Below are positions 11,796-33,360 of a stretch of DNA of 41,096 nucleotides, in pieces (position 1 is the stretch's first letter; each line of letters begins with the position of its first letter). Location of the stretch: assembly GCA_031265635.1 (NCBI GenBank), contig JAISCK010000033.1, positions 1 to 41,096 on the forward strand, given 5' to 3'. Below the pieces are notes generated by a model that saw only the letters and a list, made by a program, of their open reading frames with translations, searched no databases and was not told the DNA's origin. The stretch is from Spirochaetaceae bacterium (GTDB lineage: Bacteria > Spirochaetota > Spirochaetia > Treponematales > Breznakiellaceae). The translations under genes and the position numbers were made by a program.

Positions 11796-11803
11796 GGCGT
11801 ATC

Positions 11804-13661: not shown

Positions 13662-13706
13662 GATTGACCTCTCCTTACACAACAAATCGGCAATTTTTTA
13701 CTTAAA

Positions 13707-13741
13707 GCCGGACGCCGGGAGGCCGCTCCCGGACATCCGGC
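13707..13741 (-). other. Intercistronic GC-rich stem-loop between the binding-protein and permease genes
   Basis: gccggacgccggga / tcccggacatccggc form a ~13 bp stem with one bulge and a 6 nt loop. No U-run follows on the transcribed strand. Confidence 0.5.
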
Positions 13742-13752
13742 ATAGAAAGACC

Positions 13753-15273: not shown

Positions 15274-15301
15274 ATACATCCTCCTTAAAAATTGCATATA
15301 T

Positions 15302-16381
15302 TTAAACGGAACGTGTCCGGTAATTTTTCGCCGCTGTGGAATTTCTGACAATGAGCGTCATGTCAAGTTTTATGTCGCCGGGATTAACGCCGTTTATCAG
15401 ACTGATGACCGTTTTAATGACGCGCTGTCCTATCTGGTACGAAGGCTGCCTTACCGAGGTAAGGGTAGGCCGGGCAATATTGGTGATGGCGCCGTCATCA
15501 AAACCAACTACCGATACCTGGTCGGGGACCAAAATATTCTGTTCCCTCAGGGACTGCAAAACTCCGGCGGCTACCCAGTCGTTGGCGCAGATTACCGCGT
15601 CAAAATCAATAAGGCTCGCCAAAAAAGCCTTCATGCTTTCATAACCGCTTTCGTAGTTATAGGCGGTAATGCGCAGAAGGCTCTTTTGTACATCAAGGTT
15701 GAATTCTTTCAGCGCGTCAATATAGCCCTGGAGACGGTCAAGGGACGAATAGACGCCCCTGGTTTTACCTTCCAGGAGCGTCATAAGGTAATCCGCGTCA
15801 TAACCGGGAGTTTCCCAGAAACCCGCGAAAAAGGCGATTCTGCGATGCCCCTGCTGCAGGAGATATTTTGTCGCCGTATAGCAGCCGCTTATGTTGTCAG
15901 GATAGACATGGGGCACATTTTCAATGAGGCCCCGGCGGGACGCGATAACGGTGGGCGTTTTTTGACTGACGGCGGATTTAAAATACTCAAGGCTGTCCGG
16001 GGAAACAGGGCAGTATATCAGGCCGCCTGAAAAAGAAGCCCTTACCATATCGATACATCTGATGTCGTTTTCGATATTTCCGTTGCTTTGATACACGGAA
16101 AGGCGGAGATTATGCTCCATGCAGGTATCGGCCGCTCCCTGGAGCAGCCCGGTAAAGAGGTTGGTCTCAAAGGTCGGCAGTATGATGCTGATGATATCGT
16201 TGGTTCCTGTACGGGTATACCGGGCGTTTAAGTTGGGAGCGTAGTTTGTCTCGGCTATAGCCTCTTCAACCTTTTTTTTGAGGACCTTGTTTACATTCTG
16301 GCGCTTGTTAAGAACCCGTGAGACGGTAGGAACTGAAACCCCGGCAATGCGGGCGACATCAACAATAGTCACCTTTTCCAA
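15302..16381 (-). CDS. LacI/GalR family transcriptional regulator
   Basis: N-terminal HTH VTIVDVARIAGVSVPTVSRVLN followed by a periplasmic-binding-protein-like effector domain. TTG (16381) or GTG (16372) start. Confidence 0.9.
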   Translation of the reverse strand: MEKVTIVDVARIAGVSVPTVSRVLNKRQNVNKVLKKKVEEAIAETNYAPNLNARYTRTGTNDIISIILPTFETNLFTGLLQGAADTCMEHNLRLSVYQSNGNIENDIRCIDMVRASFSGGLIYCPVSPDSLEYFKSAVSQKTPTVIASRRGLIENVPHVYPDNISGCYTATKYLLQQGHRRIAFFAGFWETPGYDADYLMTLLEGKTRGVYSSLDRLQGYIDALKEFNLDVQKSLLRITAYNYESGYESMKAFLASLIDFDAVICANDWVAAGVLQSLREQNILVPDQVSVVGFDDGAITNIARPTLTSVRQPSYQIGQRVIKTVISLINGVNPGDIKLDMTLIVRNSTAAKNYRTRSV

Positions 16382-16386
16382 AATTC

Positions 16387-17676
16387 TTATTCCTTTTTAA
16401 GGGATGCCCCCAGTCCTTCCATGGCTTCAAAAAAGCCGGGAAAAGAAACAGACGCGCACCCGGCGTCTTTGACCGAGGTCGTGCCGTCGGAGGCAAGGCC
16501 GCAGATCAGCATCGCCATGGCCACGCGGTGATCGTTATGGCTTTCGATTACCGTTCCGCGGGGCCGTCTGCCCCCGTAAACCGTCATCGTATCCGCGTTA
16601 CTTTCAACGCGGACGCCCGTTTTGGTTAATTCACAGCACATGACCTTTACCCGGTCGGTTTCCTTTAATCTGACCGCGGCAAGGCCGGTAAACACCGTAT
16701 CGCCTTCGGCAAACGCGGCTGCCACGGCAAGGGCGGGGAGGGCGTCGGGCGTATCGCGGAGATCAATGCGTATGCCCGACTTCATGGTTCTGCCTCCCCG
16801 GACTATAAGGCGTTTATTGGCAAAGTCTTTTTCTATATCGGCGCCCATCTGAATAAGAAAGTCAATGACCGCCTTGTCGCCGTGGGTGTCATTAAAGTCA
16901 ATTGAATCAACGGTGATCTCCGAATCGGAGACAAGCGCGGCTACCGCCGGGAAAGCCACGCCGGACCAGTCGCTGGCTATGGTTGTGTCGCATGGAGTAT
17001 AACGCTGTCCGCCCTTGACAAAAAAACGTTTGTAATCGGCGGATTTCTCCACGGAAACTCCGTATTTTTTCATCCAGTCCAGGGTCATGTCAAGATAGGG
17101 CTTTTCCCCCGGATCTTTTAAAAGAATTTCCGTGTCATTTTCCAGCAGGGGCGCGCTCATCAAAATCGACGTAACATACTGGGAGAGCAGTCCGTCAAGA
17201 CGGGCTGTCCCGCCCTTCATGGGACCCCGGATGATAACCGGGCAGGCGTCAACGCCGGGACGGGAGGTAAAGGCTTCGGCGCCAAGTTCAGTAAGGGCCG
17301 CAAGCAGGGCTTTAACCGGGCGCCTTCGTATTTGCTCATCACCGGTGATAAAGGTATAGCCGTCAACCAGGGCGGCCATCGAAGCGATAAAATAGGCGGT
17401 GGAACCGGAATTTCCGCAGTCAATGTAATTGTCCGGCAGTTTCAGGCCCGGAAGGGGCCCGGTAACAGTCCACAGTCCCGGCGCCCTGCTGACTATAGAG
17501 CCAAACATCTCCGCCGCGTCCAGGGCGCTGAGGGCGTCAAGACTGGGCACGGGATTGCGTATAACAGAGGTGCCCCTGCTTAGGGCAGAAAGAAGAACGG
17601 CCCTGATGGTATGGCTTTTTGACCCCGGAACCATAATACTGCCCCTGAGGGAAGATCGTACCGAGCTGACTGTCAT
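16387..17676 (-). CDS. aroA: EPSP-synthase-fold enolpyruvyl transferase (3-phosphoshikimate 1-carboxyvinyltransferase-like, class II type)
   Basis: Motifs VPGSKSHTIR, RRRPV, LSQYVTSILM, DTPDALPALAV, RLKETDR and NDHRVAMA are present. The GNSGTTxR loop reads GNSGSTAYF, with no Arg. The start overlaps the upstream stop as TAATG. Confidence 0.8.
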   Translation of the reverse strand: MTVSSVRSSLRGSIMVPGSKSHTIRAVLLSALSRGTSVIRNPVPSLDALSALDAAEMFGSIVSRAPGLWTVTGPLPGLKLPDNYIDCGNSGSTAYFIASMAALVDGYTFITGDEQIRRRPVKALLAALTELGAEAFTSRPGVDACPVIIRGPMKGGTARLDGLLSQYVTSILMSAPLLENDTEILLKDPGEKPYLDMTLDWMKKYGVSVEKSADYKRFFVKGGQRYTPCDTTIASDWSGVAFPAVAALVSDSEITVDSIDFNDTHGDKAVIDFLIQMGADIEKDFANKRLIVRGGRTMKSGIRIDLRDTPDALPALAVAAAFAEGDTVFTGLAAVRLKETDRVKVMCCELTKTGVRVESNADTMTVYGGRRPRGTVIESHNDHRVAMAMLICGLASDGTTSVKDAGCASVSFPGFFEAMEGLGASLKKE

Positions 17677-19052
17677 TACACGCGCTCCTTCAACAAGTCC
17701 GTAAGGGTCTTGTAAACATCATCGTTATAAAAACCGCTTTTATAACAGCTAATCCATTTTTCCACCGCAGAGTCAGGAAGAACAGAGGCGGTCAGATAGC
17801 GGAATTTTTCGATTAATTCATCCCTGGAAGGCGGCGATTCAGGGGACCAGGGCTGCGTCCGGCACGCGGTACATTTTTGCCCGTTTTGCAGCACGGCTTC
17901 GACCTCCACCGAATAGGGCGAAGGCGCCTTGTCCGCGCCGGGCCTCACCTGTATCCGTGACACCAGTTCCCCAAGGTCCTTTCTGGAACGCATACTAACG
18001 CCGTATTCCTCAAGGGTAAGTTTTCCCGCGATAAGCGCCGCGCCCAGGGTGTACGGGAGGCTGTACTGACAGGCCGTCTTTGCGTCAAAGCCCTCATGGG
18101 TATTGTACATGGCGAGGAAGGACGGGCCGTAAACAGTGATCTCCCTTACACTGCCGGGGGAGAATCCGTATTGTTCCCGTAAAGCGAGAAGCGCCGCCAC
18201 AGGCGCGTGAAACCAGCGATTGCAGGGATAGGGCTTAAAATAAGTCTCCATTATCGAAAAACGGCGGCCAAGACCGTCAAGCATAGCGTTACAGTCAGCG
18301 GCGCCGGGGGGCGGCAGTCCCAGCGCTGCGGCGAAACCGCAGGGGTCTTCAAGAACGCCGGAATCGCCCCGCAGATTAAGAAGCGAAAACCTGACGGCGT
18401 TTATGCCGAGATAGTTGGGCCATCCCGAATAAAGGGATTTCCCCCCGGCCCCCGAAATGCCTGTTGAATAAGTCCCCTGGGGAAAGAGCCCCGCGAGGGA
18501 CAGCGCGCCGGCGATTACCCCGGCATCAAGACCCGCCGCCTTGCCGTAGGCGGTAACAGCGGCGAAGGCTCCCATAACGCAGGGAAAATGTACGCTTCTG
18601 TTCAAAAGGCGGGGAGAAAAAAAACGGCTGATTCTGGTGCCTGTCTCATAGGCGGCGACGATAGCGCATATCAGTGTTTTGCCGTTACCGTTGTGCATGA
18701 CATTAGAAAAGTACGCCGCCGGTATGGAAGCGCTGCCCCAATGCCCGGCCAGGGAAACGCCGTCATCATATTCAAGCTCATAACCCAGGCAGCCGGTGAG
18801 CAGCGCCGCTTCGGCAACGCCGCATTGTATGCCAAGCCCCCAGACCGTTACATCGGGACTGGGATTTATCGCCGCGAGTTTAGCGGGGAAGGCGGGATCG
18901 TCAAGGTATTTGAGGGCGCCAAAATAACAACCCGCGAAATCAAAAAAACAGTCGCATGCCTTTTGGACAAGCTCTCCGGGGAGAGCGGAAAAATCGAGCT
19001 TCTCCGCAAAAAGAGCCAGCCGGTCAAGTACCGTATTTCCTGAATCCTTCAC
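17676..19052 (-). CDS. MmgE/PrpD family protein, copy 2
   Basis: 458 aa, with the same family pattern as 8490-9839 (FDFAGCYFGA near the N-terminus). GTG start at 19052. First gene of the operon. Confidence 0.8.
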   Translation of the reverse strand: MKDSGNTVLDRLALFAEKLDFSALPGELVQKACDCFFDFAGCYFGALKYLDDPAFPAKLAAINPSPDVTVWGLGIQCGVAEAALLTGCLGYELEYDDGVSLAGHWGSASIPAAYFSNVMHNGNGKTLICAIVAAYETGTRISRFFSPRLLNRSVHFPCVMGAFAAVTAYGKAAGLDAGVIAGALSLAGLFPQGTYSTGISGAGGKSLYSGWPNYLGINAVRFSLLNLRGDSGVLEDPCGFAAALGLPPPGAADCNAMLDGLGRRFSIMETYFKPYPCNRWFHAPVAALLALREQYGFSPGSVREITVYGPSFLAMYNTHEGFDAKTACQYSLPYTLGAALIAGKLTLEEYGVSMRSRKDLGELVSRIQVRPGADKAPSPYSVEVEAVLQNGQKCTACRTQPWSPESPPSRDELIEKFRYLTASVLPDSAVEKWISCYKSGFYNDDVYKTLTDLLKERV

Positions 19053-19066
19053 CCTGTTCCCCGCAA

Positions 19067-19082
19067 TGATATAACGTTTTCA
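19067..19082. promoter_or_regulatory. Operator-like site 1 (tgatATAACGTTTTCa, reverse complement of the GAAAACGTTAT core)
   Basis: One of three exact copies of an 11 nt core with a central CG. It lies about +8 to +23 relative to the predicted minus-strand promoter. Confidence 0.55.
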
Positions 19083-19096
19083 AAAAAGCAGATAAA

Positions 19097-19125
19097 AGTA
19101 TATAGCGCGCAGATTTTTTTGTCAA
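19097..19125 (-). promoter_or_regulatory. Sigma70-like promoter of the nine-gene minus-strand operon
   Basis: On the minus strand: TTGACA (19125-19120), 17 nt spacer, TATACT (19102-19097). Confidence 0.55.
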
Positions 19126-19150
19126 CGGCATGATATTTTTTTATAAAATA

Positions 19151-19166
19151 AGAAAACGTTATATTG
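19151..19166. promoter_or_regulatory. Operator-like site 2 (aGAAAACGTTATattg)
   Basis: Second exact copy of the core, located between the two divergent -35 elements. Confidence 0.55.
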
Positions 19167-19207
19167 ATGAAAAAATCGAAAAAAAGATAATAACGCAAAA
19201 TTTGTCA

Positions 19208-19236
19208 TTGATATACGGTAATAATACCTGTATACT
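19208..19236 (+). promoter_or_regulatory. Sigma70-like promoter of the divergent permease gene
   Basis: TTGATA (19208-19213), 17 nt spacer, TATACT (19231-19236). Confidence 0.5.
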
Positions 19237-19265
19237 GGGATAAAATATGATTATTCAAATAGTAA

Positions 19266-19281
19266 AGAAAACGTTATCACA
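19266..19281. promoter_or_regulatory. Operator-like site 3 (aGAAAACGTTATcaca)
   Basis: Third exact copy of the core, about +23 to +38 of the plus-strand promoter and upstream of the 19306 start. Confidence 0.55.
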
Positions 19282-19305
19282 TTTCGTTGTACAGGCGGGA
19301 AAACA

Positions 19306-20682
19306 GTGGCGCATAGCAAGGACATGCTAAGACGGCGGGGGTTCAGGTTTTTTTTAAGCCTGGTTTTTCCCTGCCTGATACTGATCGTGAGGCCGTTTCA
19401 TATACGCTTTGACCAGGCAATGGTGCTGGCCTCCCTTGTGCTTGTCGTTACCTGGTGGTCCTCCGGAATTACCGGGAAAATACCCGCTTCCTGTTTCCTG
19501 CTTGGCGCATTTGCCTGTTTTGGTTCAGCCCCCCTCAGAACGGTTTTTTCCTTTCCATTATCTGAGAATTTCTATCTTATCTGTTTTTCGTATCTCTTTT
19601 CCCAGGGCATAAAAAAATCAGGTTTTGCCGAAAAAACCCTGGAACCCCTTTTGCTCCGTTATGTAAATACTTCCTTTAAGGTTCTTGTTTCGGTCTTCCT
19701 TGTTTTAGCGGTAACTATACCGGTGATCCCCCAGCCCCTGGCCCGGCTCATCATTGTCGCCGAAATATACCGTAATTATCTTGAAAAAACCGGCGCGTCA
19801 GGACCGCAGAAGGATTTTTTGCTTTTTGCCGTTTTTCAGGTATACGCGATTGTCAACGGCGTTTCCATAAACGCGGATATAATATTGAATACATCTGCCG
19901 TGGGATTCTCCGGCCTTGCGCTCACCAACGCGCAATGGATACGCGGCATGGCCCTCCCTACGGCGGTTTTCTGCGTTCTTACCATAGCCATGCTTGGCCT
20001 GTTTGAGCGTTTCATGGTGCGCGGGCCCGTTCTCCGCGTCAGGGAAGAAAAGAAAACAGCGACAGCGCCTTTAGGAAAAAAAGACCGCGCCGCTTTTCTC
20101 CTGATAGGCATAACGGTGCTTTTCTGGATAAGCGGTCCCCTTCACCATATAAACCACACGCTGATAACCATTACCGGAGTTTTGCTGATGTTTGTTTTCG
20201 GTATTTTGAAATTTGAAGATCTCAAAGCCATAGATATCAGTACCATGGTCTTTCTTAGCGCCGCCTTCGCCATAGGCGGCGTTATGAAGTCAAGCGGCAT
20301 AGCCGACGTGGTTTTTTCCCGCGTCGAAAGCGTATTCCCGCCTGAATATTCGGCCCTGTATATCCTGGTCATAATCTTCGTTACCATGGGCATGCATATA
20401 TTTCTGGGAAGCAATACCACAACCATGTCGGTGGTTCTTCCGCCGCTCCTGATGATATGCGGAAAAAAGCTGCCCGGAGAAGCCGTACTGTATATTGTGT
20501 ATGTAAGCCTCATGGCCCATTATCTTTTGCCCTTTCATTCCGTGGCCATGATGATAGGCGCGGGAAATAATTACTTTCCCGCCAGACTGGTGAGCCGTAT
20601 GGGAATACCCGCCATGCTGCTCATATTTTTTGTTATTTTCTTTGTCTTTCTGCCCTGGTGGCGTTTCATCGGGCTCCTCTAA
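19306..20682 (+). CDS. DASS/ArsB-like anion permease (ion-transporter superfamily; di/tricarboxylate or similar)
   Basis: 458 aa polytopic protein with a central charged loop. It has a GSNTTTM hairpin-tip motif (SNT-type, as in DASS carriers) and a degenerate first copy (LNTSA). GTG start at 19306; an ATG at 19324 is an alternative. Confidence 0.7.
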   Translation: MAHSKDMLRRRGFRFFLSLVFPCLILIVRPFHIRFDQAMVLASLVLVVTWWSSGITGKIPASCFLLGAFACFGSAPLRTVFSFPLSENFYLICFSYLFSQGIKKSGFAEKTLEPLLLRYVNTSFKVLVSVFLVLAVTIPVIPQPLARLIIVAEIYRNYLEKTGASGPQKDFLLFAVFQVYAIVNGVSINADIILNTSAVGFSGLALTNAQWIRGMALPTAVFCVLTIAMLGLFERFMVRGPVLRVREEKKTATAPLGKKDRAAFLLIGITVLFWISGPLHHINHTLITITGVLLMFVFGILKFEDLKAIDISTMVFLSAAFAIGGVMKSSGIADVVFSRVESVFPPEYSALYILVIIFVTMGMHIFLGSNTTTMSVVLPPLLMICGKKLPGEAVLYIVYVSLMAHYLLPFHSVAMMIGAGNNYFPARLVSRMGIPAMLLIFFVIFFVFLPWWRFIGLL

Positions 20683-22044: not shown

Positions 22045-22118
22045 GGGCGCGTAGCTCAGCTGGTTAGAGCGCCACGTTTACACCGTGGATGTCCGGGGTT
22101 CGAATCCCTGCGCGCCCA
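22045..22118 (+). tRNA. tRNA-Val (anticodon UAC)
   Basis: The cloverleaf folds by hand. Acceptor GGGCGCG/CGCGCCC, D-arm GCTC/GAGC, anticodon stem CCACG/CGTGG with loop TTTACAC, T-arm CGGGG-TTCGAAT-CCCTG, discriminator A. CCA is not encoded. Confidence 0.95.
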
Positions 22119-22144
22119 GAAAATTTATTCCCAAACATTAAATG

Positions 22145-22166
22145 CAGGGATTCGAACCGGAGTGCC
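22145..22166 (-). repeat. Inverted tRNA T-arm-like fragment, copy A (cagggattcgaaccggagtgcc)
   Basis: Its reverse complement ccggttcgaatccctg resembles the tRNA-Val T-arm with two G deleted. It is identical to 22342-22363. Confidence 0.7.
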
Positions 22167-22260
22167 GTGCCCGAGCAGGGCGAGGGATGCGGCGCACGGA
22201 CGCGCCGCAAGGCACGAAGGCGGGCTGGAGGAAGCGGACAGGAAGTCCGCGCCCGGAAGC

Positions 22261-22278
22261 CGAATCCCTGCGCGCCCA
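22261..22278 (+). repeat. Direct 18 nt duplicate of the tRNA-Val 3' end (cgaatccctgcgcgccca)
   Basis: Exact match to 22101-22118, lying 160 bp downstream. This is att-site-like. Confidence 0.8.
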
Positions 22279-22341
22279 AAGCGATCATGCACAGCCGCAT
22301 ATTTCTTAAAACAAGAATGAGTTCTTGGAAAGCCGCCAATA

Positions 22342-22363
22342 CAGGGATTCGAACCGGAGTGCC
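22342..22363 (-). repeat. Inverted tRNA T-arm-like fragment, copy B
   Basis: Exact 22 nt repeat of 22145-22166, with the preceding aat also shared. Confidence 0.7.
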
Positions 22364-22448
22364 AATCCCCATGGTTGGGCATTAGACAGTTCGGTTCGAA
22401 TGAAACCTGGGGCAGATCTAAAATTTTTGTGTTTTTCCTCGTGTTGTA

Positions 22449-22478
22449 TTGACAGGTAAAAAGCTCTGGGGGTAAACT
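22449..22478 (+). promoter_or_regulatory. Possible promoter of the first flavin reductase gene
   Basis: TTGACA (22449-22454), 18 nt spacer, TAAACT (22473-22478). Confidence 0.3.
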
Positions 22479-22545
22479 TTTTCCCACAGTAACTTTTCGG
22501 TCAGTCTTAAGACTTGTGGGGCTGAAAAAAACAGGAGGCGAGGTG

Positions 22546-24444
22546 ATGAAGCGTGTATTTAATATCTTGGTAATAACTCTTATTCTTGCGGAGTTGTTGT
22601 TTTCTTGTACTTCTTCTCAATCGACGCAGCCGGGAAAGAATTCTTTTAAGGCCGGCGCCTATATGGCTACTGCTAATGGGCATAACGGACCCTTGACAGT
22701 GGAAACAACCTTTAGCGATACCGCTATTCTGGATGTTAAAATTGTGAGTCAAATGGAAACCCCCGGAGTACAGCAGGTTATCAATATAGTTCCTCAGGCC
22801 ATTGTGGCCCAGCAATCCTTGGCTGTGGATACTGTTACTGGGGCGTCCTTTTGTGGCCGGGCGGTTATTGCCGCGGTAACTGATTGTGTTATCCAGGCTG
22901 GCGGTGATGTGGAGTTACTGAACCGGAAGCTAGAAAAACAGCCGGCAAGAGATCAAAGCTATGAAGCGGATGTTGTTATCATCGGTGCCGGAGGTGCAGG
23001 TCTGGCGGCGGCTGTCTCGGCCCATCAGAATGGAGCCTCGGTAATAGTCCTTGAAAAACTAGGTTTGGTCGGCGGTAGTACTATCTTCTCAGGAGGAGCC
23101 TATAACGCGGCCGATCCTGAACAGGAAGCCCAAATCAGGATGACTGCCAATAACAGGGCGGCTGTTCAGGAACTTCTTAATAAACAACCCTACGACGGGT
23201 TCGAGGCGGATCTGCAGAAAAACGTTTCGGAACAATTTGCCGCACACCAGGCTTCGGGGGCAACAGGGTTATTTGACAGCCCTGAATGGCATATGCTCCA
23301 GACTTATAATGGCGGTGATTATGAGGGGATACCTGAACTTATTCAGGTGCTTTGCCAAAATTCCCTGGACAATTATCGGTGGATGGCCAGTTTGGGGGCC
23401 GGCTGGTCCGAAACCTTGGGGGCCGCTACGGGTTCTCTCTGGCAGCGTAGTCATTATGGGACCAATGATTTTCCCGAAGGAGCCCACTCGGTGATACCCT
23501 ATAAAAATTATATTGATAACAACAATGGAGTGGATATTCACTTTGATACAAGGGCAACCGATCTTATCACCAGAAACGGCCGGGTTGTGGGGGTCAAGGC
23601 TGTGCGGAATGGGGCTGTTATGACATATACTGCCCGGAAGGGGCTTGTCATGGCCACGGGTGGTTTCGGTGCCAATATAGAGATGCGTCAACAATACAAT
23701 ATTCTCTGGGATAATTTGGACAGTAATATAGGGAGTTCCGGCCAACGGCCTGCCGCCCAAGGCGATGGGATTATTATGGGCCAGGCAGTGGGCGCTCAAT
23801 TGGAAGATATGGGACTTATTCAATTGCATCCTAGTGGCGAACTTGGTACAGGGCTGATGAACGGCGACCCCCGGACTTCCGGTCTGAATCGGATTTTTGT
23901 AAATAACGAAGGAAATCGTTTTGTCGCCGAAGATGCCCGCCGGGACGATATGATCAGGGCTATTTATAGGCAACCCGGCAGTTTCATGTGGGTAGTGGCC
24001 GACGCGACCAGATATGACCCCGACAAAGACCCCATGAAACGGGAGGTGGAGATGGGTAAGACCTTGCAGGGCGCTACTATTGAGGAATTAGCTCAGAAAA
24101 TGGGCGCTGATCCGGCGAATCTTCAAAAAGCCTTTGATGATTATAATGCCGGAGTTGACGGCGCCCCTGATCCTCTGGGACTGCGTACTTATGGTAGAAA
24201 AATGGGTAACCCGCCGTTCTATGCGGCCAAGCGGGCTCCCACAGTACATCATACTATGGGCGGCCTTAGGATAGACGCTCAGGCACGGGTACTTGGCGTG
24301 GATAATAGACCCATACCGGGATTTTATGCTGCCGGAGAAGTAACCGGCGGAGTCCATGGGGCGAATCGTCTTGGTGGAAATGCTTTGGCTGACATCAGTG
24401 TATATGGCAAAATTGCTGGACAGAACGCGGCACAGTCAAATTAA
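22546..24444 (+). CDS. Periplasmic lipoprotein flavin reductase, paralog 1: FMN_bind domain plus flavocytochrome-c / soluble fumarate-reductase-type FAD domain (UrdA-like)
   Basis: Lipobox LLFSC. Flavinylation-type motif DTVTGAS (Thr codon 22837-22839). FAD motif VVIIGAGGAGLAAA. C-terminal HHTMGGLRID and GANRLGGNA. AGGAGG lies 7 nt before the ATG at 22546. Confidence 0.85.
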   Translation: MKRVFNILVITLILAELLFSCTSSQSTQPGKNSFKAGAYMATANGHNGPLTVETTFSDTAILDVKIVSQMETPGVQQVINIVPQAIVAQQSLAVDTVTGASFCGRAVIAAVTDCVIQAGGDVELLNRKLEKQPARDQSYEADVVIIGAGGAGLAAAVSAHQNGASVIVLEKLGLVGGSTIFSGGAYNAADPEQEAQIRMTANNRAAVQELLNKQPYDGFEADLQKNVSEQFAAHQASGATGLFDSPEWHMLQTYNGGDYEGIPELIQVLCQNSLDNYRWMASLGAGWSETLGAATGSLWQRSHYGTNDFPEGAHSVIPYKNYIDNNNGVDIHFDTRATDLITRNGRVVGVKAVRNGAVMTYTARKGLVMATGGFGANIEMRQQYNILWDNLDSNIGSSGQRPAAQGDGIIMGQAVGAQLEDMGLIQLHPSGELGTGLMNGDPRTSGLNRIFVNNEGNRFVAEDARRDDMIRAIYRQPGSFMWVVADATRYDPDKDPMKREVEMGKTLQGATIEELAQKMGADPANLQKAFDDYNAGVDGAPDPLGLRTYGRKMGNPPFYAAKRAPTVHHTMGGLRIDAQARVLGVDNRPIPGFYAAGEVTGGVHGANRLGGNALADISVYGKIAGQNAAQSN

Positions 24445-24452
24445 AGATCAGC

Positions 24453-24490
24453 GTGGAAATAACATGATCGGAAGGTCATGTTATTTCCAC
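24453..24490 (+). terminator. Long hairpin after reductase paralog 1 (possible terminator or processing site)
   Basis: 15 bp perfect stem gtggaaataacatga / tcatgttatttccac, extendable to 17 bp, with a GGAA loop. No U-run follows. Confidence 0.4.
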
Positions 24491-24624
24491 ATCGTGCGAA
24501 ATAGCCTCTCCGATCAGTGTTTTTAGTGCTTCCATAATAAGTCTTTTCGAAATCCCTGTTTCTTACTGTCATCTAAAGTTGTTCTCTCAAAACTGAAATT
24601 TTAAAAAGCCTCTTATTGATAAAT

Positions 24625-24652
24625 TTGATAAATTTTGGGTTTCTATTATAGT
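24625..24652 (+). promoter_or_regulatory. Possible promoter of reductase paralog 2
   Basis: TTGATA (24625-24630, the second unit of a tandem ttgataaat repeat), 16 nt spacer, TATAGT (24647-24652). An alternative TATAAT lies at 24667-24672. Confidence 0.3.
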
Positions 24653-24738
24653 TAATACAGGAATTTTATAATTTCTTTTGGTACATTCGCCATAAATTGG
24701 TACAAAGTACCGGAGAAGGTTATTTTCAGGAGGAAGGA

Positions 24739-26661
24739 ATGACGAAGAAAATTGTAGGAGGCGGATTGGCTCTTTTTCTGCTGGCCGCTGTGTTTGGGTG
24801 CAATAGTTCAGCCAGGACGAAAACGCCGATGCGGGCCGGGACCTATACGGCCACGGAAACCGGTATGCATGGTACCCTCACAGTAGAGGTGAGTGTGAGC
24901 GCCAGTGAAATAACCGGGGTAAGGGTTACAGATAATGTAGAAACTCCCGGAGTAGGCGCATGGGCCATAGAGTTTATCCCTCAGCGTATCATTGCTCAAC
25001 AGTCGGTGAATGTAGATGTGGTAACAGGTGTTTCTCTTACCAGTAAAGCCATTATGCGGGGAGTGGAGCATTGTCTTTCCCAAGCTGGAGCCAATATCGA
25101 AGCTTTTAATAAAGCTTCCCAAAAGACCAGGGTTTCTGATGAAACCCGCTTGGCGGACGTTGTTATTGTAGGTGGCGGCGGCGCTGGACTTGCCGCCGCG
25201 GTTTCTGCCGTAAATGCAGGAGTCTCTGTAATTCTTATTGAAAAAACAGGCTTTTTGGGAGGTAACTCAATAGTTTCAGGAGGTATTTACAATGCGGCTA
25301 ATCCTGAGATGCAGGATCACTGGCCTGCTCTGCCCGGCTATGAAAAACTTGTAACTGATGCTCTGGCAGAAAGACCTGTAAGCGAAGAGCATCGGGTCTT
25401 GATCGAAAGAGTGCGTTCCGAATTTGACGCTTTTAAACGAACTGATAAGACTCTGTTCGATAGTCCCAGTTGGCATGCCCTACAGACATGGAATGGCGGT
25501 GACAAGATCGCTGAGCTAAAGATAGTTCAGACCTTGACTGGTAATGCCCTCTCTGGTTACCAGTGGTACAAAAGTATGGGAACTGAGTGGAAAAATTTGC
25601 TCATTCAGGGGACCGGGGCCATGTATCAGCGAACCTATTGGGCAGCGTTGCCTAACGGTACAGGGTTTATTAAGGCCTTCCGGGATACTCTGACAGGAAA
25701 GGGTAACTATACTCAGCTGATGGAGACATCAGGAAAGAGCCTCATTGTTGAAGGCGGTAGGGTAGTAGGGGTGAATGCTGAGGCTAAGGATGGCCACAAG
25801 ATCACTATCAGGGCAAACAAGGGGGTCATCCTTGCTACTGGTGGTTTTGCCGGCAATATAGATCTCAGACAGCAATATTGTGAAGGTGAAAAATGGCCTG
25901 ATCTTGGCCCAACGCTAAAGACCACCAATATGCCAGGGGTTACCGGTGACGGTATATTTATGGCACAGACTATAGGCGCCCAATTGGTGAATATGCAACA
26001 TATTCAACTCCTCCAGGTCTGTAATCCTCAAAATGGTACGGTAGGGGGTAACAGTTATCCCAATGATGTTGCGGGTTATACTTTTATTAATAAAAATGGA
26101 CAGCGTTTTGTCCGGGAAGATGGTCGGCGGGATGAAATCTCAACAGCCATTATCTCTCAGCCTGACGGGATGACCTGGCTTGTGCAAAGTGCCGATACAA
26201 TTACCGATCCTGATACAAATACCACCCTTGACGGTAGATCAATTACCTATATGTTAGATAACAAACTCCATGGCTGGGTAAAAGGTGATACCCTTGAAGA
26301 ATTTGCCCGGATGATAGGTGTTCCGGCTGATAATCTAAAAAGGTCTATTGATGCCTTTAATATCCATGTGGATTCTCAGTCTCCCGATGAATTTGGCCGG
26401 GTATTGTTCTCTTATAAGCATACCAGAGGACCCTGGTACGCCTTCCCCTGTAAGCCCGCGGCTCACCATACTATGGGAGGTGTTCGTATTGACGAAAACA
26501 CTCATGCCCTCAGGACCGATGGCTCAGTCATTCCCGGGCTTTATTGTGCTGGGGAAATCACCGGAGTCGTTCACGGCGCTAACCGTCTGGGTGGTAACGC
26601 CATTGTTGATTTTACGGTTTTTGGCCGCATCGCCGGAACCAACGCCGCGGCCGGCAAGTAA
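24739..26661 (+). CDS. Periplasmic lipoprotein flavin reductase, paralog 2 (FMN_bind plus FAD domain)
   Basis: Lipobox AVFGC. Variant motif DVVTGVS (Thr codon 25024-25026). VVIVGGGGAGLAAA, HHTMGGVRID, GANRLGGNA. GGAGGAAGG RBS. Confidence 0.85.
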   Translation: MTKKIVGGGLALFLLAAVFGCNSSARTKTPMRAGTYTATETGMHGTLTVEVSVSASEITGVRVTDNVETPGVGAWAIEFIPQRIIAQQSVNVDVVTGVSLTSKAIMRGVEHCLSQAGANIEAFNKASQKTRVSDETRLADVVIVGGGGAGLAAAVSAVNAGVSVILIEKTGFLGGNSIVSGGIYNAANPEMQDHWPALPGYEKLVTDALAERPVSEEHRVLIERVRSEFDAFKRTDKTLFDSPSWHALQTWNGGDKIAELKIVQTLTGNALSGYQWYKSMGTEWKNLLIQGTGAMYQRTYWAALPNGTGFIKAFRDTLTGKGNYTQLMETSGKSLIVEGGRVVGVNAEAKDGHKITIRANKGVILATGGFAGNIDLRQQYCEGEKWPDLGPTLKTTNMPGVTGDGIFMAQTIGAQLVNMQHIQLLQVCNPQNGTVGGNSYPNDVAGYTFINKNGQRFVREDGRRDEISTAIISQPDGMTWLVQSADTITDPDTNTTLDGRSITYMLDNKLHGWVKGDTLEEFARMIGVPADNLKRSIDAFNIHVDSQSPDEFGRVLFSYKHTRGPWYAFPCKPAAHHTMGGVRIDENTHALRTDGSVIPGLYCAGEITGVVHGANRLGGNAIVDFTVFGRIAGTNAAAGK

Positions 26662-26691
26662 AACCGTTTCAGGCTACGGTTGATATGTTTG

Positions 26692-26718
26692 GGCCCCGTC
26701 ATCAGGCGGGGCCTTTTT
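26692..26718 (+). terminator. Rho-independent terminator after reductase paralog 2
   Basis: ggccccg / cggggcc stem, 8 nt loop, then TTTTT. Confidence 0.7.
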
Positions 26719-27034: not shown

Positions 27035-29869
27035 ATGGATAAACTCATCATAAAGGGAGCCAGGGAGCATAATTTAAAGAATATTGACCTTGAGCTTCCC
27101 AGGGATAAACTTATTGTTATTTCCGGCCTTTCGGGGTCAGGGAAAAGTTCTCTTGCCTTTGACACCATCTTTGCCGAGGGGCAGCGCCGTTATGTGGAAA
27201 GCCTTTCGGCCTATGCCAGGCAGTTTCTGGGCCGCATGGACAAGCCCGATCTGGACTATATTGAAGGGCTTTCCCCGGCTATTTCAATAGAACAAAAAAC
27301 CACCCACCGTAATCCGCGTTCCACCGTGGGGACGGTAACGGAAATTTACGACTATTACCGCCTGCTCTTTGCCCGCATAGGGATTCCCCATTGTCCCCGC
27401 TGCGGCAGGGAAATACAGGAACAGTCGGTGGATTCAATCATCGAGACCATTATGGCCCTGGGGCAGGGGGACAAGGTGCAGCTTCTGGCCCCGGTTATCA
27501 GGGGGAAAAAAGGCGAGCATCAGAAGATCATCGAGGACGCCAAAAAGGCCGGGTTTGTCCGGGCTCGTATTGACGGCGTGCCGGTGAATCTGGACGAGAA
27601 GATACGCCTGGACAAGCAGAAAAAACATACCATCGAAATCATCGTTGACCGGCTTGTGGTCGGGCCGGACATACGCACACGCCTTGCCGATTCGGTTGAA
27701 ACCACCCTTCAAATCGCCGACGGGATCATGCTCATCCTGGCCCAGAAACAGGGAGAGTCCAGGGTAAACGAATATTTCATGTCCCAGAAAAACGCCTGTC
27801 CTGACTGCGGCATTTCCATACCCGAACTCCAGCCAAGGCTTTTTTCGTTTAACAATCCTTTCGGCGCCTGTCCTTCCTGTTCGGGCCTGGGGATCAAGAT
27901 GGAGTTTGATCCTGATCTTATCATTCCGGACTGGGATCTTTCGTTTAACGAGCGGGGCATTGCGCCTTACAATCCTGATTCCGCCTGGTACCGCAGCCGT
28001 TTTGAGAGTCTGGCCAAACACTTCAAATTCAAACTGAATACGCCCCTCAAGGAGCTGCCCAAAAAAGTTAAAGACATACTCCTTTACGGCAGCCGGGAGG
28101 ACATAGAGATTCATTACAAGAACAAGGAAGGAACCAACCATTTTGATTACAATACCAAATTCCCCGGCATCCTTGAGGACATGAAACGGCGTTACATGGA
28201 GACCCAGTCTCCGGGCATGAGGGAATGGTTTGAAAGTTTTATGAGCCAGAGGGTCTGCGAGGAATGCGGCGGCAAGAGGCTCAAGAGCGAGGCCCTGGGA
28301 GTTACCGTCGGAGGGCGGAATATCTGGGAGCTTTCCAGTCTCAGCGTTCAGGATTCCCTTACATTTTTTGAGACTCTCAAACTCAAAAAGAGCGACAAAC
28401 AGATAGCCCGGCAGATACTCAAGGAGATTAACGCCAGGCTCGGCTTTATGCAGAATGTGGGCCTTGACTACCTTTCCCTTGAGAGAAAGTCGGCGACACT
28501 CTCGGGCGGCGAAGCCCAGCGCATAAGGCTGGCCACACAGATAGGTTCAAGTCTTGTGGGAGTGCTCTATATTCTTGATGAACCGTCCATAGGTCTCCAT
28601 CAGCGGGATAACCAGCGGCTTATTGACACGCTGCTCTACCTCCGCGATCTGGGGAACACCCTCATCGTGGTTGAGCATGACGAGCAGACCTTGAGAACCG
28701 CCGACCATATTGTCGATCTCGGGCCCGGCGCCGGCGTACACGGCGGCAAGGTGATTGCCCAGGGTTCTCCTTCCGAAGTGATGAAGGTCAGGGAGAGCCT
28801 TACCGGCCGCTATCTTGCCGGGACCCTTACCATGGACATTCCCAAAAAACGGCGCAGGGGCAACGGGAGTGTTCTCAGGCTTAACGGGGTGAGGGAACAC
28901 AACCTTAAAAATATTGATGTTGAAATCCCCCTGGGGATTTTTACCTGCATCACCGGCGTTTCCGGTTCGGGCAAGTCAACCCTCCTTTCCGACGTGCTCT
29001 ATCCCGCCCTTGCCAACACGCTGTACAATTCGGCCCATACCGAGGGCGATTACGACAGCCTTGAGGGAAGCGAATTTATAGACAAGGTAATCAACATAGA
29101 CCAGAGCCCCATAGGCCGCACGCCCCGTTCAAACCCGGCAACCTATGTGGGGATGTTCCAGGGTATACGGGATCTTTTTGCCAGCCTCCCTGACGCCAGG
29201 GCCAGGGGCTACAAGCCGGGCCGGTTTTCGTTTAACGTGCGGGGCGGCAGATGCGAAAACTGCCAGGGGGACGGAACCATCAGGATAGAAATGAATTTTC
29301 TTCCCGATGTGTATATCACCTGCGATGTCTGCCACGGTAAGCGTTTCAACCACGAAACACTGGAGATACGCTATAAGGGCAAGAACATAGCCGAGGTGCT
29401 GGATATGACCATTGAGGAAGCGGCGGAATTCTTTGCCTATATTCCCCATGTGGCAAAGAAACTCGACACCCTCCTTTCGGTGGGGCTCGGCTATGTCAAG
29501 CTCGGCCAGTCCGCGCTGACCCTGTCGGGAGGCGAGGCCCAGCGGGTAAAACTCGCGCTGGAACTTTCCAAACGTTCAACAGGAAAGACCGTATACATTC
29601 TTGACGAGCCTACCACGGGACTTCACTTTGCCGATGTCAAGCAGCTCATGGAAGTTATTCAGCGCCTGGTTGACCAGGGCAATACGGTGATCATGATAGA
29701 ACATAACCTTGACGTGCTGCTCCAGGCTGACCTCCTTATTGACCTCGGCCCCGGGGGAGGGGACAAGGGAGGAAACCTTGTAACTTCAGGAACGCCCGAG
29801 GCCGTGGCAAATCATGCCAAAAGCTATACGGGTTTTTATATAAAGAAGATGCTGGACCGGAGGAAATGA
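27035..29869 (+). CDS. uvrA: Excinuclease ABC subunit A
   Basis: N-terminus [19 protein letters not shown], two ABC modules (GLSGSGKSS and GVSGSGKST), zinc-finger Cys clusters, two LSGGEAQR signatures. I chose ATG 27035 over the track start 26996. Confidence 0.97.
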
Positions 29870-32800
29870 AAAAACTATCTGCCGGGTTCCTGCTTTGTGT
29901 TATGCTTGCCTTTCTGTATGTTCCCGGAATTGTTCTTTCAGCCCAGGAAGACCCTGCCGGGGAGCCGGCGGATGTTTTGGAAAATGCCGAGCTTGAAGCC
30001 GGGACAGAGGGCGTAGCGGCAGAAGGCATAGCGGTGGATACGGCGGCGAGCGCGGATACGGAAGCCATGACAGGGGACGCGGAGGCGGAAGACGCGGAAG
30101 GCCAGGCCGCCGCGCCTGTCCTGAGCCAGGAACAGCGCCGCATCAAGATGGAAATAGACACCGGCACCCTTACCGAGCTTGCCGGGTGGGCAGGGGAACT
30201 GGGGCTTGGGGAAGGGGGAACCAGGGACGATATTGCCCGGAGGCTGTACACGCATTTCGGCCTTCCCTTTTCGGGAGCCGGGGATTCCGGGGAGAACCAA
30301 AAAGTTATAACCATAGAAGCGGCGCGGAATACCGAATACTTTACCCTGGAAGTGGTGAATGAGGAATACGCCAGGCTTTCGGGAAATGTGCGCATAAGTC
30401 TTAAAGATGGGGAAGCGGTATACGAGATTGAAGCCGGAGAAATACTTTTCAACCGTACCCGCAATCTGCTTTCGGCCTCCGGCGGAGTGTCGTACAGAAA
30501 ACAGGAGGGCGACACCGTTGAGACATTCCGGGGCCAGTCAATAGTCATAGACCTGGACAACTGGGCGGGAACCTTTATGGACGGCATTTCCGAGCGTTCC
30601 CTTACGGGGGATGATCAGGCTTACCGCTTTGAGGGTGAGGTTATTTCCCGTACCGGCGAGGATGTAACCGTACTGCGCAGGGCGAGGATAACCAACGCGA
30701 AGAACAAGGATTCCTACTGGTCCATCAACGCCTCAAAGCTGTGGCTTCTTCCCGGTTCCGATTTTGCCGTCTTTAACGCCGTACTCAAGGTAGGTGAAAT
30801 TCCGCTGTTGTATTTTCCCTTTTTCTTCTATCCCGCCGATAAACTTATCTTTCATCCTGTACTGGGCTACCGTTCACGGGAAGGGAGCTTTCTCCAGACG
30901 ACGACCTATCTTCTCGGCCGTCCGACCGCGACTTCAAGCGAGGAGAATTCCATCACGAAAATCCTCGGCAATAACGACGACATGGAAAGAAAGCGGGAAG
31001 GTTTGTTTTTGCGGAGTACGGGAAAGAAAGTAAGCGACCCCAATGACACCCGCCTTTCCCTGATCTTTGACGCCTATACAAACCTCGGCGTGTATCTGGG
31101 AAGTAATCTTGCCCTGCCGGCAAGGGGCGCTTTCGGCGCCCAGGAACTGTCCTTTGGCCTGGGTCTTACCAGGGACATATACCAGATGAGAGGCGTATAC
31201 ACTCCCTACGATTCCAACGGCACAAGCAACTGGAACCAGGGGAGGTTTTTTTCCGCTACCGTACCCCTGCGTTACCGCTTCATCTACACCGGTTCCGTTT
31301 CCGGGGCGGCGGGCAGTTTCAACTGGTCCCTGCCGTTTTATTCCGACCCTTATGTAAACAGGGACTTCCTTGACCGTTCCGAAGATATGGACCTCTTCAA
31401 TATAATGAAGCAGGGCGTTACCACCGACAGCGACCTTAGCTCAAACCTGCTGGGAAGTTATGAATGGCGGGTAAATTACTCGGTTACGCCCTCGCTGCCC
31501 GCCCTGCGCCCCTATGTGTCGGCCCTTTCCATATCCAGCCTGAGCAGTTTTATTTCGTTTAGAACAAGAACAAGCGGGGGCATGTATAATGCCTATTCGC
31601 CTAATCACAGCTTTTTCTTCCCGGATAAATTTACCCTTTTTTCCCTCAGCGCCTCGGTCTCGGGCCAGCCGGTGAATACCGCCTCAGGAACAGTATCCCC
31701 GGCATCAGCCGGCGTGGAGAGTAACGCCATGACCGAGTGGGGCCTGCCCCGTTCTCCCTGGGACGGAGCGGAAGACCATGCGGAGGCCGCCCCGTCTTCT
31801 TCCACCGCGGCGCCTCCGGGCGCCGGGAGTACCGGCGGCGTTCTGGTTCCTCCCGCCCTTGCCCAGAATTTCAACATCAAGGGCGGCATAGGCGGGCCGC
31901 GCCTTTCCCTTGATTACCGCCTGAGCCCGTCGGCTTCCTCGGAAATGCAGTTCCGTTCATCATCCGCCAACTGGAAAGAAGCGGATGATGTAGGCTGGAC
32001 GGAAATTTCCTCCATACTGACCAGCGCCCGTACATCGGGTTCCCTTACCCTGACCGCGGGCGAGGCGTCGGGCTTCTATACAAACGCCCTCACCTTTTCG
32101 GGAAATACCGCCTGGCAGGGTTACACCTACATGAATGAGGAAGCCGAAGAATACACCTCGTCCGGCGCTCCTGATCCTGTAAAGATAAACGCCGCCAAAC
32201 TCCGCAACTATCAGGCGACGTATTTTACCACTTCGGCTGAACTCTCTTCCACGGTCAGGCCCCTTGTAGGCAGCGATGTATGGAGCGCAAGCAGCCTCAA
32301 CTATTCAATCAGAAACCTTGTGGCAAAATCGGTTTTTGACGGCACGGGCCAGGACCCTTCCTGGCATATAGACTGGGGCAGGTGGAGCAAGGATACCATT
32401 GAAGCCCACCGGCTTAACGCCAATCTTGACGCCAATGTGATGGACTACAGGCAGCATGTCTCGCTCAGCGCCGAACTCCCGCCCAGGGATTCTTCCATGA
32501 CCGGAAACGGGACTTTCAATGTATGGAGATCGACCACAACCGTGTCGGGCAGAGTCGACGATCCCTTTGAGACTTCCCTCTGGCGTCCGGTAACCGTTAC
32601 CGAAACCGTTAGGCTTTCGGATAACAGCAATATGCGCTATTCCATGATATACGAACCTGAGGAGGAAGAAGTAACGAGCCTTACCGCCGGCCTTACCTAC
32701 AAAAACCTTGACGCCTCATTTTCAGCGGCCAAATTTGTTCCCTATATTCTTAATCCAACTAACGGCTGGGAATTGGACCCTTCGGGGGAAGCGGCTCTCC

Positions 32801-33360
32801 ATCCCCGGGATTTCCGGCTCCAGTACCGGCACAATCTCAAAAACGATTCCCTTTTTGAAAGCCGTCTTGGTTATTCCGTAGACGCCGCCACAAACCTTAC
32901 CCTGGATTTGCAGCGCTATACCTATTCGGCCCTGACGTTTTCCCTGAGTACCACCTTGCGGATAAGCGATTTTATGGACGCGACTTTTACCACCAGGGCG
33001 GAGAACAACCAGATAATCAGATACATGCAGGACATTCCCTATTTCAATCTTCCCAGCCTTAACACCAGCGGTTTTGAGAACAATCCCTTCCTCGACCTCC
33101 TTAACTCCTTCCGCTTTGACGATCCTGAACTGAGAAGGAGGTCGGGGTATAAGCTCAAGGATTTTTCCCTGGTATTGACCCATTATCTCGGCGACTGGAA
33201 CGCCAAACTGGGCGTCCGTCTCGCGCCGTATCTGGACCAGACCGTTGTCCCCTTTACCTACAAATTCAATACCGAAATATCCTTCCTCATACAGTGGATA
33301 CCGGTCAGCGAATTCAAAACGGAAGTAAAATACGACAAGAATGTATTTGACCTATTGTAA
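29866..33360 (+). CDS. Large secreted outer-membrane protein, OstA/LptD-like
   Basis: Signal peptide [26 protein letters not shown], an acidic low-complexity linker, an OstA_N-like beta-jellyroll region ([42 protein letters not shown]) and a long beta-rich, aromatic-rich C-terminus. As I recall, it sits directly after uvrA as in T. pallidum (TP0514/TP0515). The ATGA start overlaps the uvrA stop. Confidence 0.6.

Follow-up and report, generated by a model that had tools for sequence, protein, structure and literature searches.

Urocanate reductase, UrdA, is a lipoprotein in which the signal peptide is followed by an FMN_bind domain and an FAD_binding_2 domain (10.1101/2025.08.13.670108), and it is the closest described counterpart of the two genes considered here. 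These genes, P1 and P2, lie side by side on a contig of 41,096 nucleotides (nt) from a Spirochaetaceae bacterium (GenBank assembly GCA_031265635.1, contig JAISCK010000033.1), the whole of which is referred to as the window, and together they fill the span 22546-26661 exactly, according to a check of its open reading frames (ORFs). The layout of both proteins is exactly that of UrdA from Shewanella oneidensis (SO_4620, PDB 6T85-6T88) and S. woodyi (Swoo_3912), that is, a predicted Sec-type lipoprotein signal, an FMN_bind domain with an ApbE motif (in a variant form in P2), and an FAD_binding_2 domain. They are additional members of a large, known flavoenzyme family, and are likely to be UrdA/FrdA-type enzymes, each transcribed separately and located outside the cytoplasm, where a lipid would probably anchor them in the periplasm; they would reduce 2-enoates other than fumarate and urocanate.

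The fumarate reductases Fcc3 (1QJD/1D4C), Ifc3 (1QO8), and FrdA of Listeria monocytogenes share their catalytic FAD and clamp domains with P1 and P2, although Fcc3 has a tetrahaem domain where P1 and P2 have FMN_bind. The flavinylated FMN_bind domain of the Listeria FrdA is fed by an extracytosolic electron-transfer chain, and a survey has recorded 3070 FMN-domain, fumarate-reductase-like proteins in 1236 genomes, most of them with no assigned substrate (PMC8238504). As this family is very large and its substrates are mostly unassigned, two more non-fumarate members are unsurprising, and the value added by the present locus is contextual, through the termite-gut Spirochaetaceae habitat, the multi-gene reductase clusters of related metagenome-assembled genomes (MAGs), the donor pathway that these clusters suggest, and the history of insertion and mosaicism.

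Gut bacteria have been shown to possess large arsenals of paralogous extracytosolic flavin reductases, in which the variation of the pocket tracks the substrate, and specificity for cinnamate has evolved repeatedly (10.1101/2022.12.26.521950). These arsenals (CirA-D, CrdC/D, IrdA), likened to the present case by description only, come from human-gut Eggerthellaceae, Burkholderiaceae, and Erysipelotrichaceae rather than from a termite-gut spirochaete, and include many paralogues per genome; in related spirochaete MAGs, at least five such genes are found in 20 kilobases (kb), together with MerR regulators. Both active-site arginines are retained in clade 1 of these reductases (UrdA, CirD; 10.1101/2022.12.26.521950), which is true of P1 and P2 as well. 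The NADH:acrylate reductase ARD of Vibrio harveyi and the NADH:cinnamate reductase Crd of V. ruber, also compared by description, combine FMN_bind with FAD_binding_2 and an ApbE motif in the manner of P1 and P2, but are cytoplasmic and have an extra NADH:flavin domain, whereas P1 and P2 lack an NADH domain and start with a predicted signal peptide.

The two proteins share 40% identity over their full length in a pairwise alignment. In the Pfam searches, FMN_bind (PF04205, gathering cut-off 22) scores 43.8 bits in P1 and 51.2 bits in P2, and FAD_binding_2 (PF00890, gathering cut-off 20.4) scores 230.9 and 216.2 bits, respectively. Both proteins pass the curated cut-off (285.45 bits) of the NCBIfam model TIGR01813 flavo_cyto_c, with 328.6 bits in P1 and 327.1 bits in P2, and both reach less than half of the cut-off of 542 of NF005064 (PRK06481), with 257.0 and 242.5 bits; no equivalog-level NCBIfam model is reached by either. 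The best PDB sequence matches are Ifc3/Fcc3 and UrdA, with E-values of 1e-72 to 1e-55, the first place being taken by Ifc3 in P1 (8.6e-72, followed by UrdA at 6.6e-70) and by UrdA in P2 (8.3e-69). The AlphaFold2 (AF2) models, built from the family alignments, predict the fold of UrdA and Fcc3 for both proteins with high confidence (predicted local distance difference test, pLDDT, of 91.9 in P1 and 91.4 in P2; predicted TM-score, pTM, of 0.90 in each). In Foldseek, the top matches are UrdA 6t85 for P1 (TM-score normalized by the target, TMt, of 0.89) and UrdA 6t86/6t85 for P2 (TMt 0.86-0.87), with 32-33% identity, and Fcc3 is the next match for both (TMt ~0.72). The architecture proposed in an earlier note on this DNA, a lipoprotein-type signal with FMN_bind and a flavocytochrome-c-type FAD domain, is borne out by these profile and fold matches, and all the motifs and codon positions that it quoted were reproduced, including those of His428 and Leu425.

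The same sequence and fold searches also recover a weaker similarity to 3-ketosteroid dehydrogenases and to cyclohexanone dehydrogenase, which would be expected if P1 and P2 were catalysts of oxidation, or acted on substrates other than carboxylates, as dehydrogenase-like enzymes of this kind. This is very improbable, given that the dehydrogenase matches are far weaker (E ~1e-30, TM ~0.5-0.6) than those of UrdA and Fcc3, that FMN_bind is an electron-input domain typical of reductases, and that conservation of the carboxylate-binding Arg/His/Arg triad is complete.

Three motifs have been defined in this type of active site (10.1101/2022.01.20.477176). The carboxylate adjacent to the double bond is bound by Motif I (Arg402, His504, and Arg544/545), in which Arg402 gives the proton, while Motif II (His365 and Thr377) holds the second carboxylate of fumarate, and Motif III (Glu378, Arg381, and Arg402) forms the proton path. 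The Arg/His/Arg triad is described in the literature as common to all 2-enoate reductases, its equivalents in UrdA being Arg411, His520, and Arg560. In a MAFFT alignment of 36 sequences of the P1 clade, 119 of the P2 clade, and 18 of a third clade with PDB-derived fragments of Fcc3, Ifc3, and UrdA, the equivalents of Arg402, His504/505, and Arg545 are invariant, or nearly so, across all three clades. These residues are Arg466, His568/569, and Arg608 in P1, and Arg464, His576/577, and Arg616 in P2, which share Motif I with the fumarate reductases and the Arg/Arg/His set for carboxylate binding and proton donation with UrdA.

Motifs II and III of Fcc3 and FrdA, by contrast, are not conserved. 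Among the residues His365, Thr377, Glu378, and Arg381, only the His is kept in P1, and none is kept in P2. The His365 position is His in every sequence of the P1 clade (36/36) and Leu in almost all those of the P2 clade (116/119), while the T-E-x-x-R pattern (Thr377/Glu378/Arg381) is absent from both clades (36 and 119 sequences), with P1 having GDPRT at amino acids (aa) 440-444. An apolar residue in place of His is also found at the His365 position of ARD (Met, as against the Leu of P2), in which Motif III is altered too. As the altered pockets are conserved across each clade, they do not represent decay, and the non-fumarate signature described in the earlier note is supported by the profile searches, the alignment to the solved structures of Fcc3, Ifc3, and UrdA, and this clade-wide conservation.

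The two proteins might nevertheless be fumarate reductases that bind the second carboxylate in another way, in P1 through His428 and the conserved Arg of 'SGLNR', an arginine that is invariant in the clade and stands just before the 'IFVN' strand. The retention of His365 throughout the P1 clade and the best PDB match of P1, the fumarate reductase Ifc3, would agree with this possibility. It is improbable, however, given the absence of Thr377, Glu378, and Arg381 from both clades, the loss of His365 in P2, and the low scores on NF005064, on which fumarate-signature spirochaete relatives, which served as a positive control, reach 401 and 529 bits. These relatives, with the signatures QSHPT..MLTEGIRG..YRD in L009 (MAG Gsp477_bin169) and QTHPT..MIGEAVRG..TRD in L012 (MAG GCA_025997595.1), also indicate that related genomes already hold fumarate-signature paralogues.

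The signature of the urocanate reductases in the literature consists of acidic residues at Glu177 and Asp388, plus Tyr373, the residues by which UrdA binds the imidazole. The Glu177 position is Ala in P1 and Ile in P2, and that of Tyr373 is His and Leu, respectively. At the Asp388 position, P1 has Asp442 in the HMMER alignment, where the majority of its clade has Gln, and acidic residues are absent from the loop of P2. Both proteins have Tyr at the Met236 position, where Phe prevails in the P1 clade. The reduction of urocanate, or of an imidazole-acrylate derivative, by one or both enzymes would be consistent with the place of UrdA at the head of the structural matches of both models and of the sequence matches of P2, with the position of Asp442 opposite Glu378 of Fcc3, which corresponds to Asp388 of UrdA, and with the label 'urocanate reductase' given by the sources to some of the third-clade homologues. 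These database labels are unverified, however, and the replacements at the Glu177 and Tyr373 positions, the absence of an acidic residue from the P2 loop, and the Gln of most sequences of the P1 clade leave such an activity with little likelihood. When P1 and P2 are aligned with UrdA and Fcc3, in other words, neither the fumarate nor the urocanate specificity set is conserved in either protein, in keeping with the non-fumarate reading of the earlier note.

The conserved residues indicate that P1 and P2 have the chemistry of 2-enoate reductases in pockets of neither the fumarate nor the urocanate type, and that their distal pockets differ from one another. Given these differences, the two enzymes would most likely reduce two different 2-enoates, neither of them fumarate or urocanate, so that the two distinct acceptors suggested previously are a reasonable inference. 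The substrate is not assignable from the sequence of either protein, and, as the case of Crd of V. ruber shows, a judgement based on similar pocket residues can miss the catalytic efficiency by three orders of magnitude (10.1101/2023.03.04.531086). Speculatively, and with low confidence, the apolar distal positions of P2 (Leu425, and the Ile and Tyr in 'GGIYNAA') might accommodate a substituent that is apolar or aromatic, like that of the cinnamate or hydroxycinnamate acids, which are abundant in the wood-feeding termite gut, while the His kept in P1 might point to a polar-substituted enoate. Both guesses would fit a lignocellulose-rich habitat.

The domain layout, motifs, fold, clade-wide conservation, synteny, and mosaic structure are results of the present analysis, while the export, flavinylation, electron donor, catalytic direction, and substrates are extrapolated from the family. 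By analogy with it, P1 and P2 would leave the cytoplasm through the Sec pathway and receive a lipid at Cys21. Flavin mononucleotide (FMN) would then be joined covalently to Ser101 of P1 and Ser99 of P2, within the FMN_bind domain, by an ApbE/Ftp-type flavin transferase of the periplasm, the gene of which would lie outside the window. Electrons taken up by this FMN from an electron-transfer chain of the membrane would pass to the non-covalent flavin adenine dinucleotide (FAD) of the catalytic domain. The FAD would deliver a hydride to the beta-carbon of the substrate, an alpha,beta-unsaturated acid whose carboxylate is held by Arg608/His568 in P1 or Arg616/His576 in P2, and the alpha-carbon would be protonated by Arg466 in P1 or Arg464 in P2, in each case the second arginine of RRD.

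The predicted signal peptide of P2 (MTKKIVGGGLALFLLAAVFG before the Cys) has K3K4, an apolar core, and VFGC21, and passes the PROSITE PS51257-type rule, while that of P1 (MKRVFNILVITLILAELLFS before the Cys) has a basic MKR start, an apolar core of 12 residues, and LFSC21. In the closest homologue of P1, a Gly is found where P1 has Glu16 (within window positions 22546-22608). In the AF2 models of both proteins, an N-terminal helix is followed, directly after Cys21, by a low-confidence disordered linker, which matches the expectation for a protein tethered by a lipid.

The flavinylation motif, defined as D-x-x-[S/T]-G-A-[S/T] (PMC12052999), is canonical in P1 (DTVTGAS), while P2 has Val in place of Ala (DVVTGVS). 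The variant highlighted in the earlier note is indeed present in P2, but it does not appear to represent a defect or a sign of decay, because most sequences of the P2 clade have Val (77/119, with Ala in 42/119), because G-V-T motifs (AGVT and TGVT) are also found in the PplA-like secreted protein encoded beside the P2-type genes of related MAGs, and because an A->V mutant of the K. pneumoniae FRD is still flavinylated, at ~50% (PMC12052999). Non-functionality through decay of one copy, especially P2, would account for its departure from both the canonical His (Leu425) and the G-A-[ST] motif (TGVS), although this is extremely improbable, as both features are clade-wide, the PplA-like protein uses similar motifs, the reading frame of P2 is intact, its catalytic triad is invariant, and its AF2 model is confident.

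The domain search of the proteins of the window recovers no ApbE, cytochrome, or quinol dehydrogenase partner, in agreement with the earlier note, and no further FMN_bind gene. In the related Spirochaetia MAGs L003 and L012, the P2-type genes adjoin those of a long-chain polyprenyl diphosphate synthase, a Pyr_redox_2 flavoprotein of 678-686 aa, and a 252-aa secreted protein, which is the one with the two G-V-T motifs. The L012 cluster additionally contains TatABC, small FMN_bind proteins, MerR regulators, and at least four further reductases with different pocket loops. Compared at the level of the domains, the composition of these clusters is similar to that of the Listeria locus for flavin-based extracellular electron transfer (Ndh2, DmkB, PplA) that powers FrdA. 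Based on the gene clusters of these related MAGs, the donor pathway of P1 and P2 would most likely be a Listeria-like chain.

The enzymes may, alternatively, be as described here but conserve no energy, contributing to redox balancing through the disposal of reducing equivalents, or to the detoxification of phenolic acids rather than acting as terminal respiratory reductases. Termite-gut treponemes, and the spirochaetes of this habitat in general, are regarded mainly as fermenters and acetogens, and the window contains no quinone- or energy-coupling genes. The cinnamate reductase of V. ruber, in addition, has been proposed to detoxify cinnamates (10.1101/2023.03.04.531086). Such a role is possible but somewhat unlikely, given that the reductases of the related MAGs adjoin a polyprenyl synthase and an NDH-2-like flavoprotein, resembling the Listeria chain that feeds FrdA, and that the extracytoplasmic location fits a membrane-linked chain.

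If P1 and P2 are respiratory reductases of 2-enoates, a broader scenario can be outlined, which is put forward tentatively and is, taken as a whole, unlikely. Termite-gut spirochaetes would run a Listeria-type chain, formed by an NDH-2-like enzyme, a polyprenyl quinone, and a PplA-like G-V-T flavoprotein, which would feed exchangeable periplasmic lipoprotein enoate reductases, with phenylpropenoic acids derived from lignocellulose as the substrates. New specificities would be gained through the insertion of single genes or through cassette recombination, in which the catalytic part is swapped while the resident signal peptide and 3' end are kept, with P2, at the tRNA-Val/uvrA locus, as an example. 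If true, these bacteria would have a respiratory electron sink in wood digestion. Should the substrates of P1 and P2 be lignin- or hemicellulose-derived cinnamates, this would be an unrecognized electron sink in termite hindgut metabolism.

The history of the locus can be approached through its relatives. The window sequence is found in termite-gut metagenome runs, and the relatives found for the lineage-specific 1164-aa gene, downstream of uvrA, are confined to five MAG contigs of termite-gut-type Spirochaetaceae and Treponema. In L006 (MAG Gx485_bin116), the gene order is plsC, tRNA-Val, a single reductase of the P2 type, and uvrA, and in the MAG L008 a P2-type 3' end is also found before uvrA. 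Between the window and L006, the aa identity and synonymous third-position identity are 97.9% and 0.89 in UvrA, and 91% and 0.90 in PlsC, in comparison with 69.8% and 0.54 in the whole of P2. The segment that bears P1 represents a presence/absence polymorphism (indel), and is most likely an insertion, based on its replacement by a much shorter stretch in L006. P2, in turn, is a mosaic, in which the synonymous third-position identity to L006 is 0.89 in codons 1-40, 0.49 in codons 41-610, and 0.81 in codons 611-640. The G+C content at the third codon position (GC3) of this interior is 0.426, as against 0.60 in the first 40 codons and 0.58 in the last 30, while that of the interior of the L006 orthologue is 0.60, like its neighbors. 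Assembly chimerism was considered as the source of this mosaic, but an independent Logan contig spans 24279-26918 at a uniform depth of ~10x, the same as in the flanks, which argues against it.

On the simplest reading, P2 would have a foreign interior, brought by recombination into a native gene of which the signal-peptide region and the 3' end remain. The lineage would, on this reading, have gained P1 as an inserted whole gene and replaced the mature part of its resident P2-type gene by intragenic recombination, both being recent imports, and a single locus would combine whole-gene gain with within-gene allelic replacement between genomes in which UvrA is 97.9% identical, which would be a concrete example of the reshuffling of the range of respiratory substrates. 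The proposal that these genes were acquired is thus reinforced by the absence of P1 from the locus of such a close relative, and by the synonymous divergence, close to saturation (third-position identity of 0.49 versus 0.89 in the flanks), and low GC3 of the interior of P2. The lower GC reported for this segment is weak at the level of the whole genes (0.506 in P1 and 0.487 in P2, versus 0.526 for the window), and becomes clearer at GC3 (0.477 and 0.445, respectively, versus a mean of 0.587, with a standard deviation of 0.072, over 27 window genes). A local duplication, as the description of the genes as tandem paralogues might imply, is contradicted by their position in two separate, broad clades, which span Spirochaetia and Firmicutes, with the nearest relatives at 74% identity in P1 and 73-76% in P2.

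In L009 (829-2616), the gene that bears the fumarate signature encodes a third FMN_bind reductase of the lipoprotein type, and lies between the 1164-aa gene and phoH, a site that is empty in the window (about 33368/33369). The insertion of a fumarate-type reductase at this other intergenic site suggests that the single-gene gain of such reductases is recurrent in the group.

A number of points weigh against the reading of P1 and P2 as lipid-anchored reductases of other 2-enoates, acquired by this lineage. The signal of P1 fails the strict PROSITE PS51257-type lipobox rule, with Glu16 at position -5, and the A->V mutation of the K. pneumoniae FRD, the sole mutational test reported, reduced flavinylation to ~50% (PMC12052999). 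The loop between His365 and Arg402 is aligned differently by HMMER and MAFFT, and the residues opposite Thr377, Glu378, and Arg381 are uncertain, as are the equivalences in this ambiguous loop (aa 429-450 in P1 and 426-448 in P2), for example that of Asp442 of P1 with Glu378/Asp388. No ApbE or electron-donor gene lies within the 41-kb window, and the neighborhoods of the ten homologues inspected, which are mostly solo genes among housekeeping genes or arrays of paralogues, are not conserved, and contain no conserved lyase, esterase, or transporter that hints at a substrate. The mosaic structure of P2 is read from a comparison with one close relative (L006), and no RNA run holds the sequence.

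Table 1. Positions of the features of the reductase locus in the window and of the related gene clusters (positions refer to the window unless a MAG is named).
Feature	Position	Strand	Remarks
tRNA-Val (anticodon TAC)	22045-22118	+	intact; ARAGORN; Rfam tRNA 71 bits; conserved upstream edge of the locus
Extra 142-nt segment after the tRNA	22119-22260		partial local duplication, absent from L006
Inverted T-arm-like 26-mers (two)	22141-22166 and 22338-22363
Exact copy of the last 18 nt of tRNA-Val	22261-22278		160 nt downstream of the tRNA, upstream of P1
P1-bearing segment, ~2.27 kb	22438-24709	+	~61 nt in its place in L006 (BLASTN)
Sigma-70-like match TTGACA-18-TAAACT	22449-22478	+	upstream of P1; consensus match only
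P1	22546-24444	+	632 aa; start ATG, AGGAGG upstream
P1 layout	Cys21 codon 22606-22608		predicted signal peptide; FMN_bind aa 45-115; FAD_binding_2 up to aa 614
P1 flavinylation motif DTVTGAS (aa 95-101)	22828-22848	+	Ser101 predicted FMN attachment
P1 substrate loop IQLH428PSGELGTGLMNGDPRTSGLNR...RR466D	23818-23946	+	His365 equivalent and predicted proton-donor Arg kept
P1 HHTMGG (aa 568-573) and NRLGGNA (aa 607-613)	24247-24384	+	predicted carboxylate-binding His and Arg
Perfect 15-nt inverted repeat, 8-nt loop	24453-24490		follows the P1 stop codon directly; lacks a T-run on the + strand
Sigma-70-like match TTGATA-16-TATAGT	24625-24652	+	upstream of P2; consensus match only
P2	24739-26661	+	640 aa; start ATG, AGGAGG upstream; longest ORF begins at TTG 24697
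P2 layout	Cys21 codon 24799-24801		predicted signal peptide, lipobox VFGC; FMN_bind aa 42-113; FAD_binding_2 aa 140-621
P2 interior, ~codons 41-610	24868-26570	+	putative foreign allele; counterpart L006 2524-4227; 60-70% nucleotide identity
P2 flavinylation motif DVVTGVS (aa 93-99)	25015-25035	+	Ser99 predicted FMN attachment
P2 substrate loop IQLL425QVCNPQNGTVGGNSYPNDVAGY...RR464D	26002-26133	+	Leu for His365; predicted proton-donor Arg kept
P2 HHTMGG (aa 576-581) and NRLGGNA (aa 615-621)	26464-26601	+
Predicted proton-donor motif RRD	P1 aa 465-467; P2 aa 463-465
His365 position	23827-23829 (P1); 26011-26013 (P2)		codons of His428 (P1) and Leu425 (P2)
GC-rich hairpin followed by a T-run	26691-26714	+	after P2; resembles an intrinsic terminator
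Reductase cluster L012 (Spirochaetia MAG GCA_025997595.1)	3654-20353		five FMN_bind/FAD_binding_2 reductases, 678-aa Pyr_redox_2 protein
Related cluster L003	5929-13951

Each gene has a promoter-like match of its own and a hairpin downstream, which fits an organization into two monocistronic units, like the solo homologue genes found elsewhere; the inverted repeat after P1 would possibly represent the end of its transcript. The tRNA-Val is the only Rfam element in the 21.5-27.2 kb region. Described earlier as scarred, this tRNA is itself intact, although the 18-nt repeat of its 3' end and the inverted T-arm 26-mers do lie nearby, bracketing neither gene. The segment that follows the tRNA (22097-22445) is partly duplicated, with each copy containing the tRNA 3' end and the inverted 26-mer GGCACTCCGGTTCGAATCCCTG on the - strand, while L006 has one copy. 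A tRNA-linked genomic island was considered and rejected, given that the tRNA repeats are confined to 22.1-22.4 kb and do not bracket P1 or P2. No copy of the tRNA 3' end follows either gene, the 18-nt repeat being the only one, and there is no integrase in the 41-kb window and no repeat that brackets the P1-bearing segment.

The 1164-aa ORF downstream of uvrA (29866-33360, + strand) has no Pfam match, and its start overlaps the uvrA stop. Two other ORFs have no Pfam family, one of 446 aa at 1117-2457 (+ strand; E <= 1e-5) and one of 377 aa at 39957-41090 (- strand; E <= 1e-4). Upstream of the reductases, two MmgE/PrpD-family genes on the - strand (8490-9839 and 17676-19052) flank an Opp-type ABC transporter (9861-15351), a LacI-family regulator (15302-16381), and an EPSP-synthase-family gene (16387-17676), and the second of them is followed by a DASS-family transporter (19306-20682). 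The genes between 8490 and 19052, together with this transporter, may form a cluster for the utilization of organic acids. The DASS transporter and the two MmgE/PrpD genes, with their possible dicarboxylate or itaconate link, were considered as partners of the reductases and set aside, as plsC and the tRNA intervene; the idea of an upstream partner is weakened further by the status of P1 as a probable insertion and by the predicted action of the reductases outside the cytoplasm. Genes for a BKACE (beta-keto acid cleavage enzyme), an SDR-family protein, an acetate-kinase-like protein, and a thiolase form a run at 2540-6574, which is adjoined by a low-GC gene with the metallo-beta-lactamase fold (6706-7530, GC3 0.389).

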